64,000 nucleotides of DNA. Origin: Nitrospirota bacterium (lineage in GTDB: Bacteria; Nitrospirota; UBA9217). The notes under the pieces were generated by a model. That model was not told the origin of the DNA. It ran no database searches and was given only the letters and a program-made list of their open reading frames with translations. Made by a program: the position numbers and the translations under genes. Below are positions 36,444-52,676 of this stretch, in pieces (the stretch's first letter is position 1; every line of letters begins with the position of its first letter). Location: contig CAVTRN010000002.1 of the NCBI GenBank assembly GCA_963737155.1, positions 288,001 to 352,000 on the forward strand, given 5' to 3'.

Positions 36444-36731
36444 ATGGCAAAGGCAATGACGAAATCCCAATTGATAGCAAAGGTAGCGGAGAAGGCATCA
36501 CTTACGAAGAAGGCAGCAGGTGAGATATTAGACTTCATCGCTGAAACAGCTTACAAAGAAGCTAAGAACTCGTTCACGATACCCGGACTCGGCAAGCTCG
36601 TTCTCGTTCAGCGCAAAGCTCGGATGGGAAGAAATCCTGCCACAGGCGAGACTATCAAGATAAAGGCAAAGAAGGTAGTCAAATTTCGAGTAGCCAAAGC
36701 CGCCAAGGATGCGATCCTCGGCACAAAGTAA
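36444..36731 (+). CDS. hup: HU-family DNA-binding protein
   Basis: MTKSQLI..., RKARMGRNPATGETIKI, VKFRVAK; RBS GGAGG; terminator 36759-36790. Confidence 0.95.
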   Translation: MAKAMTKSQLIAKVAEKASLTKKAAGEILDFIAETAYKEAKNSFTIPGLGKLVLVQRKARMGRNPATGETIKIKAKKVVKFRVAKAAKDAILGTK

Positions 36732-37058
36732 CCAAGTCTTTCTACTCTCGACACCACCAAGCCCATTCATCATCGAGTGGGCTTTTCTTTTCTCCGAGCA
36801 ACAAAAAAAGAGAGTGATGACCATCTCTGCAGGTGGTGCCCTGAAGCACTCTTATTGACTTTCTCATGCGTAGATATTGAGCTGGGCATGGTGGATATGC
36901 TTTAATTAAGGACTCATGATGCCGGCAGCGATAAATTACGGATAACTGGTTAACGTATTCTTGTAACGTCTTGAGTCGTCTCTGCCTGGACATGGTCAAC
37001 AATATTGTGAAGTTTTCAGGATTCGCATTCCCTGATTATAATTGACAGGAGGTACTCT

Positions 37059-38325: not shown

Positions 38326-39180
38326 TCACGGCGTATAGTACTTGCCGTTTACTTCATCTCCAATGATAGCAAAATTCGCCGTTGATGTTTCAAGTGGATC
38401 GGATTTCCATGAAAAACCGATCGATGGAACTTCAACCGAGGCCTCAAGCTGAGCTATGGCTTTGAAGCCATCGACACGGAATTGTTTCTGAGAATCGTCG
38501 TAGCTGAACTTCTCGTTTGTTGCTTTCCACACGATACGCAAGTCCATTCTAGCAGGTATTGTTTCTGCCTTGAACTGCGGCCATTTTGGCTGGTCTATTA
38601 TTTCAATCCCTTTCATTTGCAGTACCGCCGAACGTCCATCATTGCTAAAAGTGACTCCTCCTTCGGCTACAGGCACAACCCAGTAAAGGCCACACGGTCC
38701 GACCGGAGGATGAAAATCATGCACCTGATTCGCAGGGGCCAACTGCCCCTTGAAGAGGGTCACTCATATATGTGCGAACGTCCCATTTTGAGCGGTTCTC
38801 CCCGTGTAGTACTCACCCTGCATGATATCGTTATCCGTTGTAGGATTTCCAAAGGCAAGGCGATTGCCCTTGTTATCAGTGCCCATGCCTCTAAAATCTG
38901 CACATCGGGCGACCTTGCCTTTGAAATGATAAATGTGCGATGGCTCCGTGGTAGGACCAGCTGGCTGGTTGTGACTGCCGTTCTTATCAAGCCAAGGAAT
39001 GGGAAAGGGGTAATTACTTCCATCGTAAACGAAAGGTTCTTTTTCGACTTCGTTATGTTTACCCGTCGCATCAGCATGGTTTGGAATTTGAAGCGCTGAC
39101 GCTGCCGCAAGTATCGAGCCAGAAATAAGAAAACGTCGCCTACTGAACTCGAAATTGGATGACAAAAATTCTTTTTTCAT
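38326..39180 (-). CDS. Tat-exported protein with in-frame TGA (candidate selenoprotein, 284 aa, U139)
   Basis: SRRRFL Tat motif; ORFs 38764-39180 and 38326-38763 abut in frame, separated only by TGA; SECIS-like hairpin follows. Confidence 0.6.
38733..38752 (-). promoter_or_regulatory. Putative bacterial SECIS element
   Basis: AGGGGC-AGTTG-GCCCCT stem-loop; loop begins 19 nt after TGA and has G at position 2. Confidence 0.55.
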
Positions 39181-39257
39181 GTTAACCTCCCTTTCTGTAG
39201 TCCTCGTTAGAAGAAGCTTCTGCCAAAGTAATGCAAATTAGGCTTTTTGATTTCAGT

Positions 39258-39350
39258 ACCGTTCCTGAAACCATGTATTTTATTTCCATATACTAGGACG
39301 GCAGCCGAACAGGGCTGCTGCCGGTTAACGTCAAGGCGCATGCCTCTGAT
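39258..39350 (-). ncRNA. Orphan TnpB omega-RNA/right-end scaffold copy
   Basis: Reverse complement matches 52445-52538 with 4 substitutions and 1 indel. Confidence 0.7.
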
Positions 39351-39423
39351 GTAGCAGAACAGGTTAAACTACCGAGTTTAAGGAACCCATAATGAAGGTA
39401 AAAGATACTTCCTTCCTGCCCTC

Positions 39424-40254
39424 CTATTCCGCAAGTGCAACGGTGGTTTCGGATTCCTGGGAACGCATCTGCTCTTCCATTACCATATGGGTGATTACCT
39501 GCTGAAGACTGAGGAACCATGGTGAGGTCGTATCTCGTGAATGAGGAAATCTCACTTCAACAATCTTTTTCACCGTGCCTGGCCGATTGGTCATGACGAC
39601 CACACGGTCAGCGAGGTAAATGGATTCCTGTATGCTGTGGGTGACGAAGATGATGGTCTTTTTGAATTCCATCCAGATGCGAAGGAGTTCATCCTGCAGC
39701 ATACTGCGAGTCAAGGCATCCAATGCGCCGAAAGGTTCATCCATTAGCATCATCGGTGAATCGAGCGCGAGGGCTCGGGCAAAGGCTACCCGCTGACGCA
39801 TTCCCCCCGACAAGTCCTTAGGATACCGGTCACGGAAATCCGAGAGTTGCAGCTTGTCCAAAAACGCATCGACCTTTAACCTGACAGCGGCCTTCGGCAA
39901 GCCTTTGATCTTCAATCCAAATGCCACATTCTCATCCACATTCATCCATGGGAACAGCGCATACTCCTGAAAAACCATGGCGCGGTCCGGCCCCGGAGCG
40001 GCGACCTCTTTGTTATTGGCGATCAGTCTTCCTGACGTAGGGAGAGAGAAACCGGCAATGGCATTTAAAAGGGTCGATTTGCCGCAACCTGATGGTCCGA
40101 GGATGCAGATGAACTCACCACGGTGGATGTCCAGATTGAAATCCTTAAGCGCAACAATTTCCCGGCCTTCGGAACGATAAACCTTGTTGACTTGCTCGAT
40201 TCTGACGATTGGCTCGTTAGCAGCGCTCATTCTTCCAGTTAACTCCGTAAGCAT
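39424..40254 (-). CDS. NitT/TauT-family ABC ATP-binding protein
   Basis: GPSGCGKST, LSGGMRQR, LMDEPF, VTH. Confidence 0.95.
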   Translation of the reverse strand: MLTELTGRMSAANEPIVRIEQVNKVYRSEGREIVALKDFNLDIHRGEFICILGPSGCGKSTLLNAIAGFSLPTSGRLIANNKEVAAPGPDRAMVFQEYALFPWMNVDENVAFGLKIKGLPKAAVRLKVDAFLDKLQLSDFRDRYPKDLSGGMRQRVAFARALALDSPMMLMDEPFGALDALTRSMLQDELLRIWMEFKKTIIFVTHSIQESIYLADRVVVMTNRPGTVKKIVEVRFPHSRDTTSPWFLSLQQVITHMVMEEQMRSQESETTVALAE

Positions 40255-40260
40255 GTTCTT

Positions 40261-41109
40261 CTATTCGCCCGTTTCAATGCTCCGACGCCAGCGAAGCAAG
40301 TAATTGTTGATCCGGCTCATGACCGTGTCGATGGCCAAACCCAACATGCCGATAGTAATCATCCCGGCAATAATCTTGTCTGACCAGAAATATTCCCGAG
40401 CCTCAATGATCCGGTAACCCAGACCGTTATTGACTGCAATCATTTCGGCAACAATTACGCAGATAAATGCCACGCCAATTCCTACGCGCAGTCCGGTAAG
40501 AATTTGGGGCATCGCTGCTGGTACGATGACCCGGACAAAAAGCGTCTTTTTCCCGGCCCCCAGGTTCTGCGCTGCGCGTATGTAGATCGCATCTACATTC
40601 CGGACTCCGGATATTGTGTTCATGAGCACAGGAAAGAATGCGCCGAGACTGATGAGAAAATATGCCGGCGGGTTCCCCAACCCAAACCAGAGTATTGAAA
40701 GAGGAACGTATGCAATGGGGGGGATCGGCCTCAAAATCTGTATGAGGGGATTAAAAAGACGATGGACTCTTTCGAAGTTCCCCATCAGAAGTCCCAGGGG
40801 CAGTGCCAGACCGGCGCCGATAAGGAAACCGATAAGCACCCGGAGAAAAGTTGCAAACAGATCGCTGGGAAGCTCTCCTGAAAATATCCATACTAAATAG
40901 GTCATCTGTTTAGGATCGAAAGGCTCAAGAGGGCGGGCATACGCTATCCATCGTGAAAACACCTGAGTTGGGGCAGGAAGGGCCTGAGGATTGAACACTT
41001 GATTTCGGGACAGCAATTCCCAAACGACAAGAATTCCAACAGGAATGATGGCCGACTGAATGATCTGCCTGATCATTTTTGCCACCGATTGTTTTTGTTT
41101 ACCTGGCAT
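40261..41109 (-). CDS. NitT/TauT-family ABC permease
   Basis: RPIPPIA, AAQNLGA, VAEM motifs; multiple TMs. Confidence 0.95.
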   Translation of the reverse strand: MPGKQKQSVAKMIRQIIQSAIIPVGILVVWELLSRNQVFNPQALPAPTQVFSRWIAYARPLEPFDPKQMTYLVWIFSGELPSDLFATFLRVLIGFLIGAGLALPLGLLMGNFERVHRLFNPLIQILRPIPPIAYVPLSILWFGLGNPPAYFLISLGAFFPVLMNTISGVRNVDAIYIRAAQNLGAGKKTLFVRVIVPAAMPQILTGLRVGIGVAFICVIVAEMIAVNNGLGYRIIEAREYFWSDKIIAGMITIGMLGLAIDTVMSRINNYLLRWRRSIETGE

Positions 41110-42067
41110 TTAGCTCCTTCTTGGCTTTATCGAGTAAATCGAGCCTGACGTAGTCCTTTGCAACGGGTGGTTTCGTCATTTTCGCAATACCATACTTGAC
41201 CATCATGTCTGTCGAAATTTGTACCTGTGCAAGTGTGACATCATAGGTAAATGGCGAATTTTCGATGGCTTGTCGGTAGTCTTCGCTCGAGAGCTGACCC
41301 TTGAACATCTTATCCCGAACATACTGTTCAGCAACATCCGGATGTTCTATAAAATATTTTGTTGCTTCAACGAAGCATTTCATAACCCGTTCAGCAACAT
41401 CACGCCGCGTGTTATACATTTTTTCAGTCATGATCAGAGTTCGAACCGGCTCTCCAAGCGGCGTATCATAGGGTTTGATGATCTCAACGCCATAACCCTT
41501 GCTGATGGCCTGCGAGGACTGGGGTTCCGATTGACTAATGGCGTCAACGTTCCGGGAGAGAAGAGCCTGGTTAAGGTCGGCATAGGCCATGTACTCGATC
41601 TGTACATCCTTGCCCGGGTTCACAGAATAGGTCAAATTATATTTCCCTAATTCGGCAAGAAGGACCAGTTCCTGAGCGCCACCACGGGGCACTCCTACCT
41701 TTTTCCCCTTGAGATCGGCGATTGAATGCCATTTCATGTTGGAGCGTCCGACTATCCGCGCACCTCCACGGGCAAATCCTGCCACGATATAGATCGGGAC
41801 ACCTGCAGCACGGGCCGCAATTGCACCGTCGATAGCACTCGCCGCGATGTCAATGTCACCTGCGATGATTGCCGGCATAATATCGATCCCCTTGGGAAAT
41901 ATGCGCTCCTCTATCCTGAGATTGTACTTAGGCGCGATCTCCTTCATATACGATACAGTCCCGTAATGGGCGAACTTGAGGTTTCCGAGGCGGACCAAAT
42001 CTTCAGCATAAACTGATGAACTACACCAGACCATTACCCACAGAAATATTGCCGCAATCTTTTTCAT
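41099..42067 (-). CDS. SsuA/NMT1-like ABC substrate-binding protein
   Basis: Signal peptide, DLKGKKVG motif; RBS GAGGAGG before ATG 42067. Confidence 0.9.
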   Translation of the reverse strand: MKKIAAIFLWVMVWCSSSVYAEDLVRLGNLKFAHYGTVSYMKEIAPKYNLRIEERIFPKGIDIMPAIIAGDIDIAASAIDGAIAARAAGVPIYIVAGFARGGARIVGRSNMKWHSIADLKGKKVGVPRGGAQELVLLAELGKYNLTYSVNPGKDVQIEYMAYADLNQALLSRNVDAISQSEPQSSQAISKGYGVEIIKPYDTPLGEPVRTLIMTEKMYNTRRDVAERVMKCFVEATKYFIEHPDVAEQYVRDKMFKGQLSSEDYRQAIENSPFTYDVTLAQVQISTDMMVKYGIAKMTKPPVAKDYVRLDLLDKAKKELNAR

Positions 42068-42095
42068 CGAATGCCTCCTCGCCATGGCCGTCTCC

Positions 42096-50335: not shown

Positions 50336-50772
50336 GCGAAGTCATCAAAGACCAAAAAGGCGGGATAAGATAAGCAAAGGGTGCGCTCGGATTCGTGAGT
50401 TAAAATATTCGGACGCGCCGATTTACGTGAGGCAACGACCAGACCACAGTTTGTAGCAAAAGATAGCGAAAAAGGCATAGATTACAAAGAAAGCCGCAGA
50501 TGATATCTTAGAATGCATCATAGAAGTAGCCTAACAAAGAAGACAAAACACTTTCACGTTGCCTGGACTTGGCAAACTCGTTCTCGCTCAGCGTAAGGCA
50601 CGTAGCGGCAGGAACCACGCAACAGGAGAGACTAATCAAATTAAGGCAAAGAAGGGTTCTCAACTGGTCAAGCTTTAATTGTATATTAGCAACTTTTATG
50701 ATATATTATATTCAATGGAATATATAAATAAGGGCTAAGCATCAGTAAACTAACAACTTGAGGCCGTAAAAA

Positions 50773-52464
50773 GTGTCAACTAGGAAAAGCACCAAAAATA
50801 AGAATGGTGGTGGAAAAGACACCCTGTCATTCACTGCAAATATGCTTCTGGATGATCACCCCTACCCGGAAATAAAGACCTCTCTTTATGCCATCCTCGA
50901 CGATACGGGCATCTTGTATGGCCGTATAAAGCGGACCCTGTTTAAAGACTGCATTCGCTCCGGCAAAAAAACAACAGAATTAAAGAACGAATACCTGTTA
51001 ACGTACAAGATCACTGCACGGCAGTACAATGCAGTCCGCTATGACCTGGACGGGAATATCAAGGCGGTAACGGAAATCAACAAGCTCAGAATCCTGGATC
51101 TTGAAGAGAAAATAATATCAGTAAAAAAGTGGATAGCAAACAATGAGTCAAGAATACTCAAAATAACGGATGATGTGAGTATCCCAAGCACTGAAAAAAA
51201 GATCCAGGCAAAGGAGCTTCAGTATCGTGTTGATAATAAGAAACGAAAGCTTGCTTCTTTGGAGCAAAAGCTTTCCAAGCTCAGGGAAGATCAGAAAAAC
51301 CGGCGGGTAAGGATTTGTTTCGGGTCAAACAAGATATTCAGAAAACAATTTTCCCTGGAGGAAAACGGGTACAAAAGCCACAATGAATGGCTCCTGGACT
51401 GGAAAAGGTCTCGCAATAACACTTTCTTTTGCCTTGGCTCGAAGGACGAATCGGGCGGGAACCAAACGTGCACCCTGAAGTCCGATGGGACGATGAGATT
51501 AAGGGTCCCTGATTGTATGAAGGACAAATACGGGCATTCCATTGTAATTCCCCGCATAAAATATCCCTATGGTCAGGAACATATCGAAACGGCCCTTCAG
51601 GCCGGAATAGCGATTTCTCACAGGTTTACCAGGGGCGAGAAGGGCTGGTACCTGCACACGACGGTAGATGTTCCAAAGGCAAAAACAGTTACTTACAAGC
51701 CAAAGGAAATCGGGTCTATCGGAGTGGACGTCAATGAAAAAGAAATCGCGGTTAGCGAGACCGACCGGTACGGGAATTATGTCAGGAGCATAACATATCC
51801 ATCCTGCGTTAAGGATTTGCGTACTGAACAGACAGAAGCAATGTATAGCGATATCTGCAAGTCCATCGTGGACCGGGCAGCCAAGACGAGAAAACCTATA
51901 TCCCACGAAGAACTCGATTTTAGCAAGAAGAAAGCTTCCTTAAAAGAGCAGGGCGTTACTTACGCAAGGATGCTTTCCGGTTTCGCCTACGGAACCTTCC
52001 TCACCCTGCTGGATAGAAGGGCGGCAAAACATGGCGTTTCCGTGCTCCCGGTCAACCCTGCTTTCACCACGACCATAGGGAAATTTAATTACGTGGACCG
52101 CTATGGTATTACGTCGCATGAAGCTGCGGCGCTGGCCATCGCGAGACGCTCTCAACATTTCAGTGAAAGGCCTGATTCCGCCAGAATCGCGCCTCCCGTA
52201 CCTGCAAGGAATCGGGGGGTGCATATCTGGAGCATTTGGAGAAGGCTGAAGACGAGACGGGCGGGCGGTAGCATTAGCCTGACCGGCTCAAGGCGGTCCT
52301 TACAGGACTCCTCAGGTTGCGCTGAACCACAAACGAAATTTACATCAACGAAGACAGCGCAATCCATGCGGCCACCTCTTGCTACAATAAAGAGTGTGCA
52401 CCGCCGCATGGGATCCCAATTCAAAAATCACGGGACTTGGGTGAATCAGAGGCATGCGCCCTGA
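50773..52464 (+). CDS. tnpB: Long TnpB-related RuvC protein (563 aa)
   Basis: RuvC-I IGVDVN, RuvC-II HEELDF, VNPAFTT, RuvC-III region SHEAAALAIARR; no C-terminal zinc finger. Confidence 0.85.
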   Translation: MSTRKSTKNKNGGGKDTLSFTANMLLDDHPYPEIKTSLYAILDDTGILYGRIKRTLFKDCIRSGKKTTELKNEYLLTYKITARQYNAVRYDLDGNIKAVTEINKLRILDLEEKIISVKKWIANNESRILKITDDVSIPSTEKKIQAKELQYRVDNKKRKLASLEQKLSKLREDQKNRRVRICFGSNKIFRKQFSLEENGYKSHNEWLLDWKRSRNNTFFCLGSKDESGGNQTCTLKSDGTMRLRVPDCMKDKYGHSIVIPRIKYPYGQEHIETALQAGIAISHRFTRGEKGWYLHTTVDVPKAKTVTYKPKEIGSIGVDVNEKEIAVSETDRYGNYVRSITYPSCVKDLRTEQTEAMYSDICKSIVDRAAKTRKPISHEELDFSKKKASLKEQGVTYARMLSGFAYGTFLTLLDRRAAKHGVSVLPVNPAFTTTIGKFNYVDRYGITSHEAAALAIARRSQHFSERPDSARIAPPVPARNRGVHIWSIWRRLKTRRAGGSISLTGSRRSLQDSSGCAEPQTKFTSTKTAQSMRPPLATIKSVHRRMGSQFKNHGTWVNQRHAP

Positions 52465-52538
52465 CGTTAACCGGCAGCAGCACTGTTCGGCTGCCGTCCT
52501 AGTATGTGGAAATAAAATACTATGGTTCCAGGAACGGT
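52445..52538 (+). ncRNA. Putative omega-RNA scaffold 3' part
   Basis: Overlaps tnpB stop and ends at the element boundary; hairpin CGGCAGC/GCTGCCG whose loop CTGTTC can pair with terminal GAACGG (pseudoknot). Confidence 0.65.
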
Positions 52539-52676
52539 GTCAAATTCGGAGTAGCAAAAGTCGTTAAACATGCAATTCTCCGCACAAAGAAGTAATCACC
52601 CCCCTTTGTTTTGTTATTCTAAGCCCATTCCCAATCGAGGGGGCGACCGTACTCGCGGCTAAATGGGGAAGGGCTC

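Follow-up and report, generated by a model that had tools for sequence, protein, structure and literature searches.

Protein-less elements of the IS200/IS605 group, of the PATE-like kind, carry omega RNAs, the guide RNAs of TnpB, and are reported to need TnpB in trans (Meers et al., bioRxiv 10.1101/2023.03.14.532601). The use of guides in trans by such IS605 derivatives has thus already been published, and is presented there as serving the retention of a selfish element. In the description by Wiegand et al. (bioRxiv 10.1101/2023.11.30.569447), the TldRs are tnpB homologues that are nuclease-dead and not mobile; they have no transposon ends, lie beside oppF/ABC genes and use short guides to the oppA promoter. 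The IS607 family is characterised by GG at its termini and at its target, without inverted repeats or target duplication (PMC6188088), and other TnpBs of this family are reported to use a guide RNA of the RAGATH-18 type. Here we analyse a window of 64,000 nucleotides (nt), positions 288,001 to 352,000 of contig CAVTRN010000002.1 of a Nitrospirota bacterium, which corresponds to C2:288001-352000 of its 4.84-Mb, two-contig genome (G000). In it, a first-pass annotation made from the sequence alone had singled out an orphan copy (window 39258-39350, minus strand) of the guide-RNA scaffold of a TnpB-family element located 13 kb away (50654-52538, plus strand), and had interpreted it as a second, possibly regulatory, guide for the same protein, citing the ABC-associated TldRs and the use by TnpB of omega RNAs encoded in trans; the published accounts bear both of these points out. 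The interpretation itself is supported in part, and for the most part is not. The orphan is a truncated right end of a multicopy IS607-type element, here called family A, and it is probably an inert stump left behind by a deletion.

Aligned with window 52445-52538 (plus strand), the orphan differs by 4 substitutions and one 1-nt deletion over 94 columns, as had been reported, and the same pair was recovered by a repeat finder, with 89 of the 94 aligned columns identical. A genome-wide search with the orphan gave E 3.9e-35 at 95% identity, so that the match is not due to chance. The identity ends at ...GGAACGGT, the very point where all six family-A copies split into different flanks, and it had therefore been placed correctly at the end of the element. 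By alignment and by covariance model the orphan represents the last 93 nt of the family-A right end, that is, the 3' part of a covarying, omega-RNA-like scaffold, and it abuts a flank of its own, in keeping with the earlier description of a scaffold copy with a different guide.

The element from which this right end derives is present in many copies. A search of the genome with the 563-amino-acid protein of the window element gave 32 matches at E<=0.001. Family A comprises five full-length copies (94-100% amino acid identity, without stops) and a sixth that is broken near its start, while family B, with 58% amino acid identity, has nine copies over nearly the whole protein, one of them with an internal TAG, and further pieces besides. 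The full family-A element of the window, whose boundaries were set from 6 copies with different flanks, measures 1885 base pairs (bp) and encodes only the TnpB-family protein, without tnpA. Family-B elements are about 2.6 kb long and carry, directly upstream of tnpB, a second gene with a Pfam Resolvase domain (65.8 bits; L041:933-1499); the resolvase-type homologue in the related genome G011 scores 57 bits. The junctions of 6 family-A and 9 family-B copies revealed neither inverted repeats nor target duplications. Both families start with (G)GG and finish with GG, after which a T usually comes, and their targets are (G)GG. The window copy is inserted inside the 3' end of a paralogue of an HU-like (Bac_DNA_binding) gene, with flanks at 50430-50653 and 52539-52644. 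The uninterrupted HU-like paralogues, used as stand-in empty sites (window 36479-36740; G000 C1:412868-413198 and C2:1519907-1520239), read ...AAGAAGGT..., which places the insertion at GG, and the uninterrupted paralogue of the window copy's target reads GAAGG.

Since family B combines a Resolvase-domain TnpA just upstream of tnpB with GG ends and (G)GG targets, and lacks inverted repeats and duplications, it is of the IS607 type. Family A is, by its gene content, a non-autonomous, tnpB-only IS607-type derivative, and would depend on family B for TnpA. Two traits set these elements apart from the described IS607 family. Their TnpB is 540-590 amino acids long, with a long helical N-terminal half, and falls below the cutoff of the NCBIfam guided_TnpB model (45.9 versus 100 bits for the 563-amino-acid protein). 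In addition, no Rfam family, RAGATH-18 included, is matched by the guide-RNA region at gathering score; indeed, none reached its gathering threshold anywhere in the 64-kb window.

The TnpB-family gene of the window (50773-52464, plus strand) has 563 codons from a GTG start. Its product scores 15.7 bits with the Pfam TNB domain, and a sequence search of PDB returned no relative, just one weak, unrelated match at E 0.1. A database search identified 353 homologues at E<=1e-5 among 8000 scored candidates, under the names 'IS605 OrfB family transposase' or 'IS200/IS605 family accessory protein TnpB-related protein'. Among 25 aligned homologues, D319 and E379 are invariant, H449 occupies the RuvC-III position in at least 90% of the rows, and no cysteine pairs of the zinc-finger kind occur between RuvC-II and RuvC-III. 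The RuvC-like site thus reads D-E-H, and not the canonical D-E-D with a C4 zinc finger. An AlphaFold2 model of the protein has a mean predicted local distance difference test (pLDDT) score of 79.3; it is confident as far as residue 496 or so, and drops below 50 in residues 497-563. Compared with PDB by Foldseek, the model gave 47 matches at E<=0.001, with TM-scores of just 0.3-0.55. The top 31 matches listed are all Cas12f, k, m, e or g, Fanzor2 or TnpB, for example 8hr5_A (2.1e-8), 8iaz_A (ISFba1 TnpB, 1.1e-4) and 8exa_A (ISDra2 TnpB, 1.8e-4). As modelled, the protein has the bilobed fold and the RuvC-like nuclease domain of the TnpB/Cas12 superfamily. A TnpB clade with the same peculiarities has been described: in RIIIr-4 histidine takes the place of the RuvC-III aspartate and there is no C4 zinc finger, and this major clade is considered probably active (Altae-Tran et al., PNAS 2023, PMC10691335). 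The invariant D319 and E379, the prevailing H449 and the lack of zinc-finger cysteines match that signature, by which the 563-amino-acid protein would be a member of RIIIr-4.

The right end of the intact copy contains a conserved, structured RNA-like region of about 228 nt (52311-52538, plus strand), which overlaps the 3' end of tnpB, stops at the element boundary and has a pseudoknot beside the guide position; its nine helices, the pseudoknot among them, were defined by RNAalifold and by pair counts. We first consider a short model built from 28 right ends of this genome and three congeners, with three hairpins and the CTGTTC:GAACGG pseudoknot. In it, 80.2% of the cells are paired, compared with 30-47% when the partners are slid, 16 of the 30 pairs change on both sides, and the covariation is 0.171, compared with 0.138 in shuffles, a value reached by 1 shuffle in 500. 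At the third pseudoknot pair, two of the 28 rows, both of them degenerate copies, have A-U instead of G-C. One pseudoknot position is U-G in 24 of the 28 rows, which fits an RNA of the element's sense strand only. The long model was obtained with RNAalifold from 12 longer sequences, replacing its invariant CGTT/AACG helix by the pseudoknot. It has 54 pairs in the nine helices, with 90.4% of the cells paired (31-41% when slid), compensatory changes in 24 of the 54 pairs, and a covariation of 0.295 against 0.163, and 0 of 500 shuffles reach either value. The structure was derived from the alignment on which it was then tested, and kinship between the rows inflates shuffle tests; the slid controls are the fairer measure. 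The last 109 nt are 88% identical between families A and B although their proteins are only 58% identical. This right-end structure is best read as the omega RNA of the element, since TnpA, a serine recombinase, acts on double-stranded DNA, and the structure is strand-specific, covaries and overlaps the disordered tail of the open reading frame (ORF). That tail, residues 497-563 (window 52261-52464), coincides with covarying RNA helices, and its partial conservation (e.g. SLQD.SG) may reflect a constraint on the RNA rather than on the protein.

The orphan holds only part of this scaffold. Its first base is the start of helix 6, so that helices 6-9 are kept, with 23 of the 54 pairs and 93 of the ~228 nt (the 3' 41%), and it is not a whole scaffold. 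The missing helices 1-5 contain 31 pairs, 19 of them with a compensatory change, that is, most of the covariation, and of the 109-nt block that families A and B share, the first 15 nt are absent from the orphan as well. What remains, all on the minus strand, is hairpin 1 (about 39332-39348), hairpin 2 with its CGGCAGC/GCTGCCG stem (39299-39323), hairpin 3 (about 39273-39295), weakened by the 1-nt deletion, and the pseudoknot partners CTGTTC (39307-39312) and GAACGG (39259-39264). The hairpin 2 stem and both pseudoknot partners are identical to those of the 52445-52538 copy, as had been noted before. Compared by eye, two of the five differences from the window copy are variants common to other family-A copies and three are private to the orphan: a C to T change in hairpin 1, which turns a G-C pair into G-U; an A to C change in the loop of hairpin 2, which makes a competing helix; and the 1-nt deletion, which falls in the 3' strand of hairpin 3. 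In isolation the intact 94 nt fold into the three consensus hairpins, which the minimum-energy fold of the orphan does not reproduce. With a covariance model built on the last 125 positions (R1; matches counted at E<=0.01), the orphan scores 99.6 bits and ranks 24th of 37 copies, and the 19 copies attached to tnpB score 128-144 bits.

These 37 right ends answer the proposal, also made in the first-pass annotation, that further scaffold copies be sought in the genome. Within 2.3 kb upstream, 19 of them have at least 317 encoded TnpB residues, 6 have 47-195, and 12, the orphan included, have no tnpB coding remains. With 37 scaffold-like copies and 19 tnpB-attached right ends, the nuclease gene 13 kb away is not the single partner it had been taken for. 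The 18 right ends without substantial tnpB upstream constitute a natural series of truncated scaffolds, and the 5' limits of the tnpB-less ones are scattered. Two copies (C1:1616623-1616953 and C2:2748630-2748897) are clear internal-deletion derivatives with both a left and a right end. The orphan is 95% identical to family A and the other tnpB-less copies are 72-85% identical to the family-A query used; by this measure the orphan is the youngest of the tnpB-less right ends. One of the others, at C2:2582173-2582296 (minus strand) of G000, starts within 3 nt of the orphan's internal start. Both its hairpin 2 (CGGCATC/GATGCCG) and its pseudoknot (CTATTC:GAATGG) show compensatory changes. Located 24-32 nt upstream of it is a family-B left-end motif (GAATACTGT), a resemblance for which 5% of random windows score as well. 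It may come from a lost subfamily or from a mini-element.

The orphan begins 73 nt past the stop codon of the ATPase gene of an ATP-binding cassette (ABC) transporter (39424-40254, minus strand), on the same strand, which agrees with the sense position about 74 bp after the stop given previously. We propose the following history for it. The family-B serine recombinase TnpA would move the element at GG dinucleotides, and the zinc-finger-less D-E-H TnpB would be encoded upstream of, and overlapping, the ~228-nt structured RNA whose end coincides exactly with the right end and which, by analogy with characterised TnpB systems, would continue into the flank to form a guide. The left end, or most of it, the whole of tnpB and the scaffold's 5' 60% would then have been lost by a deletion or rearrangement, with the last 93 nt left behind. 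The resulting stump would be young, being 95% identical to the active family, and would mark an element that formerly lay, or in miniature still lies, between the ABC operon and the next gene. It is most likely functionless, and may ride on read-through transcripts of the ABC operon. The orphan is in any case ordinary in kind, a solo transposon end in a genome rich in insertion sequences, and protein-less remnants with guide-RNA ends have already been described. What this locus and its relatives add is a covariation-supported, pseudoknotted scaffold of about 228 nt for an IS607-linked family of zinc-finger-less D-E-H TnpBs, together with the truncation series. If any of the truncated copies loads TnpB, it would define the minimal scaffold of a little-studied clade and would show a route from transposon debris to trans-acting guides.

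Several observations weigh against an inert stump. Counted by eye, the private changes amount to about 3 per 93 nt in the orphan and about 1 per intact family-A copy; such changes are few, so that the counts do not demonstrate decay. The orphan may well be transcribed by read-through, as the stretch that separates it from the ABC ATPase gene has no predicted terminator-like site. The hairpin 2 stem and the pseudoknot partners, on which the earlier interpretation laid stress, are unchanged. In ISDra2, according to the published experiments, the 231-nt scaffold can do without its 5' 115 nt, and activity is retained by a core of 116 nt or less (PMC10097598), and by analogy a 93-nt 3' core could still bind TnpB. 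Finally, the stretch upstream of the orphan aligns to the family-A left end from the first base, a point that leads to the best-surviving of the other explanations. One particular route for the deletion was also considered, from the internal GGG (TTGGGTGA) that lies just before the position of the orphan's first base to a host GG, mediated by TnpA, and was rejected, as the orphan junction has no GG.

According to that explanation, the orphan belongs to a miniature non-autonomous element of about 131 bp (39258-39388), akin to a miniature inverted-repeat transposable element (MITE) or to the PATE-like elements, in which a short left terminus (GGGTTC...) is joined to the 93-nt right end. Such a unit would be recognisable to the family-B recombinase, and TnpB supplied in trans would re-cut the empty site, so that it would serve selfish homing and not host regulation. 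The evidence centres on the 73 nt of spacer that separate the orphan from the ABC ATPase stop (39351-39423, minus strand), of which 39351-39388 (GGGTTCC...) may be a degenerate left-end remnant. These 38 nt directly upstream of the orphan open with the same six bases, GGGTTC, as the family-A left end, and when the spacer is aligned to left-end positions 1-26 with lenient gap costs, its score is equalled by 0.4% of 5000 random genomic 73-mers. Under the scheme applied first, by contrast, in which the 100 nt upstream of the orphan were compared with the 80-nt family-A left end at stricter gap costs, 31% of 2000 shuffles did as well. A BLAST search with the left ends of both families found no match near the orphan, and the spacer lacks the subterminal AT-rich motifs that the two families' left ends have in common. 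The resemblance thus depends on the scoring scheme and remains uncertain. Of the earlier statement that neither tnpB nor a left end is attached, the first half stands, as no tnpB remains upstream, and the second is doubtful for this reason.

The two unambiguous mini derivatives with left and right ends elsewhere in the genome speak for a mini-element, as do the solo right end at C2:2582173, with its nearly identical internal start and the family-B left-end motif 24-32 nt upstream, and the protein-less IS605 elements with omega RNAs described by Meers et al. Like the PATE-like elements in that description, the orphan is protein-less, has retained the guide-RNA end and would need TnpB in trans. 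Unlike the orphan, they keep both ends and belong to Y1-transposase systems, whereas here the left end is doubtful, only the 3' 41% of the scaffold is present and the recombinase is of the serine type. The junction between spacer and orphan, moreover, is single-copy: no second copy occurs in G000 or in the 40 relatives searched, and the orphan's 5' junction, taken as an exact 28-mer, gave 0 records in metagenome contigs, so that there is no sign of transposition as a unit. On balance we consider a mini-element unlikely, and a deletion stump remains the better account of the same junction.

A second alternative takes the stump for a working additional guide RNA, which would be transcribed together with the ABC operon, be bound by TnpB from other copies and have a regulatory effect. 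Its target would perhaps be the promoter or 5' untranslated region of the TGA-containing gene downstream, which would be bound or cut. This agrees with the sense orientation 73 nt behind the ABC ATPase gene with no predicted terminator, with the intact hairpin 2 and pseudoknot partners, and with the position of the flank directly 3' of the element end, the predicted 20-nt guide (39238-39257, minus strand), 58-77 nt before the start codon of the gene that follows. Truncated ISDra2 scaffolds are reported to work (PMC10097598), and domesticated relatives of TnpB are reported to act as repressors (bioRxiv 10.1101/2023.11.30.569447). The orphan has nevertheless lost 60% of the covarying scaffold, and one of the helices it retained is damaged. 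The 11 other tnpB-less copies show a similar arrangement with varied truncation, which looks like random decay, and conservation of the stump was not shown in the relatives.

The predicted guide itself gives this possibility little room. In characterised TnpB systems, the motif 5' of the target comes from the left flank, and it prevents cutting of the occupied site. The left junctions of the full copies, compared by eye, have a purine-G-GG context in 12 of 13. The orphan's flank follows the element end (…AACGG) and not a target motif of the (G)GG type. A search for guide matches next to a GG-containing target-adjacent motif had been suggested in the first-pass annotation; at up to 3 mismatches the 20-nt guide has no second match in the genome, and its sole match, its own flank, is preceded by ACGG instead of (G)GG, the usual safeguard against self-targeting. 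With no (G)GG motif at its own flank and no second match, the orphan guide is left without a legitimate target unless the unit excises. Two 16-mer guide matches with 1 mismatch were rejected as targets, as they lack a GGG-type 5' motif. One of the two, at G000 C2:1261754-1261776, extends to 21 matching positions of 23 when part of the element end is taken in along with the first 16 nt of the flank. It lies inside an apparent multihaem cytochrome ORF, and a simple count puts the expected number of matches of this kind at about 3e-4; it is regarded as chance or as a resemblance between target sites.

The comparison with the TldRs, on which the regulatory reading had drawn, does not hold either. 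As in the TldR loci described by Wiegand et al., a TnpB-type guide scaffold adjoins an ATPase gene that is the last of an ABC transporter operon. In those loci, however, a tldR gene is present, while the orphan locus has no protein gene of this kind and its scaffold is a transposon end; no tnpB-like ORF was found at the locus, beside either the ABC operon or the orphan. The operon is of the NMT1/THI5 type and not Opp. The protein family here is mobile, multicopy and bounded by transposon ends, its catalytic signature (D319/E379/H449) is conserved, unlike that of the TldRs, and no second guide target exists in the genome. Neither an immobile, nuclease-dead homologue beside the operon nor a guide matching a host promoter was thus found. 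Taken together, these observations make a functional guide quite improbable.

The boldest form of this idea is that the stump is a minimal, trimmed guide-RNA gene, transcribed by read-through and loaded in trans by D-E-H TnpB from about 15 intact copies, and that the complex sits on, or nicks, the DNA upstream of the candidate selenoprotein gene downstream. We hold this to be at least as improbable. If it were true, decaying IS607 ends would seed the regulation of host genes, an early step towards TldR-like domestication in RIIIr-4. That the similarity arose by chance, or stems from some generic hairpin repeat with no relation to the insertion sequence, can be dismissed in view of the 89 of 94 identical columns (E 3.9e-35) and of an end that falls exactly at the boundary set by six independent insertions. 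The deletion stump is thus the explanation that we retain.

Upstream of the orphan, the three genes of the ABC operon (all on the minus strand) encode an NMT1/THI5-like binding protein (41099-42085; Pfam NMT1, 56.8 bits), a permease (40261-41109; BPD_transp_1, 99.4 bits) and the ATPase (ABC_tran, 113.9 bits). The operon is found with 72-83% identity in 7 of the 40 relatives searched, in none of which the match continues past the stop codon, and none of the 40 showed conservation of the stump. In G003 there is no element after the orthologous ATPase gene, that is, the site is empty. In G011 a full, family-B-like element (L073, G011:C12 3339-5718) lies directly after the ATPase stop, inserted between TAG and GG in the orphan's orientation; it has a 201-amino-acid resolvase-type gene and a 549-amino-acid tnpB, runs to the end of the contig and has a B-type right end. 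Since G000 keeps GGGCAG after the stop, like the empty G003 site, and the right end in G011 is of type B, the two insertions would be independent events at the same permissive spot. In none of G011, G003 and G007 does the ABC operon adjoin the gene that here lies downstream of the orphan. The context of the downstream gene also differs between G011 and G007, and the oxidoreductase-like gene upstream of it in G011 has no homologue in G000; as this context is variable anyway, the break in synteny cannot be tied to the element.

We also examined environmental sequence data from 4 runs, in the form of contigs of soil or peat metagenomes and metatranscriptomes. No contig in these runs bridges 39350/39351. 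The DNA contigs that match 39307-39350 extend into full family-A sequence, and therefore come from other copies. Contigs from RNA libraries cover 39298-39330 only; they derive from a related element and are uninformative about expression or silence of the orphan. Two of the peat metatranscriptome assemblies (X9 and X20) contain contigs of 369 and 423 nt with the right end of this related element, at word depths of 69 and 48, and neighbouring contigs of this genome's relatives have depths of 4-8. The contrast is suggestive of abundant RNA from this region, and is not a measure of expression. An RNA-library contig of a relative with about 92% identity spans 38518-39240 and has a 25-letter loose end, which runs along the 'guide' and departs from the right end in its last 6 letters; this is a weak hint of an empty site in that relative.

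The gene downstream of the orphan (38326-39180, minus strand), for which no Pfam family was found, is a single frame of 284 codons with a Tat-like (twin-arginine-type) signal peptide, and is a candidate selenoprotein gene. It has a single in-frame TGA at 38764-38766, followed by a GC-rich, hairpin-like stretch. The homologue in G011 has a TGA at the same codon, and L096 1771-2628 (minus strand) is listed with the window gene.

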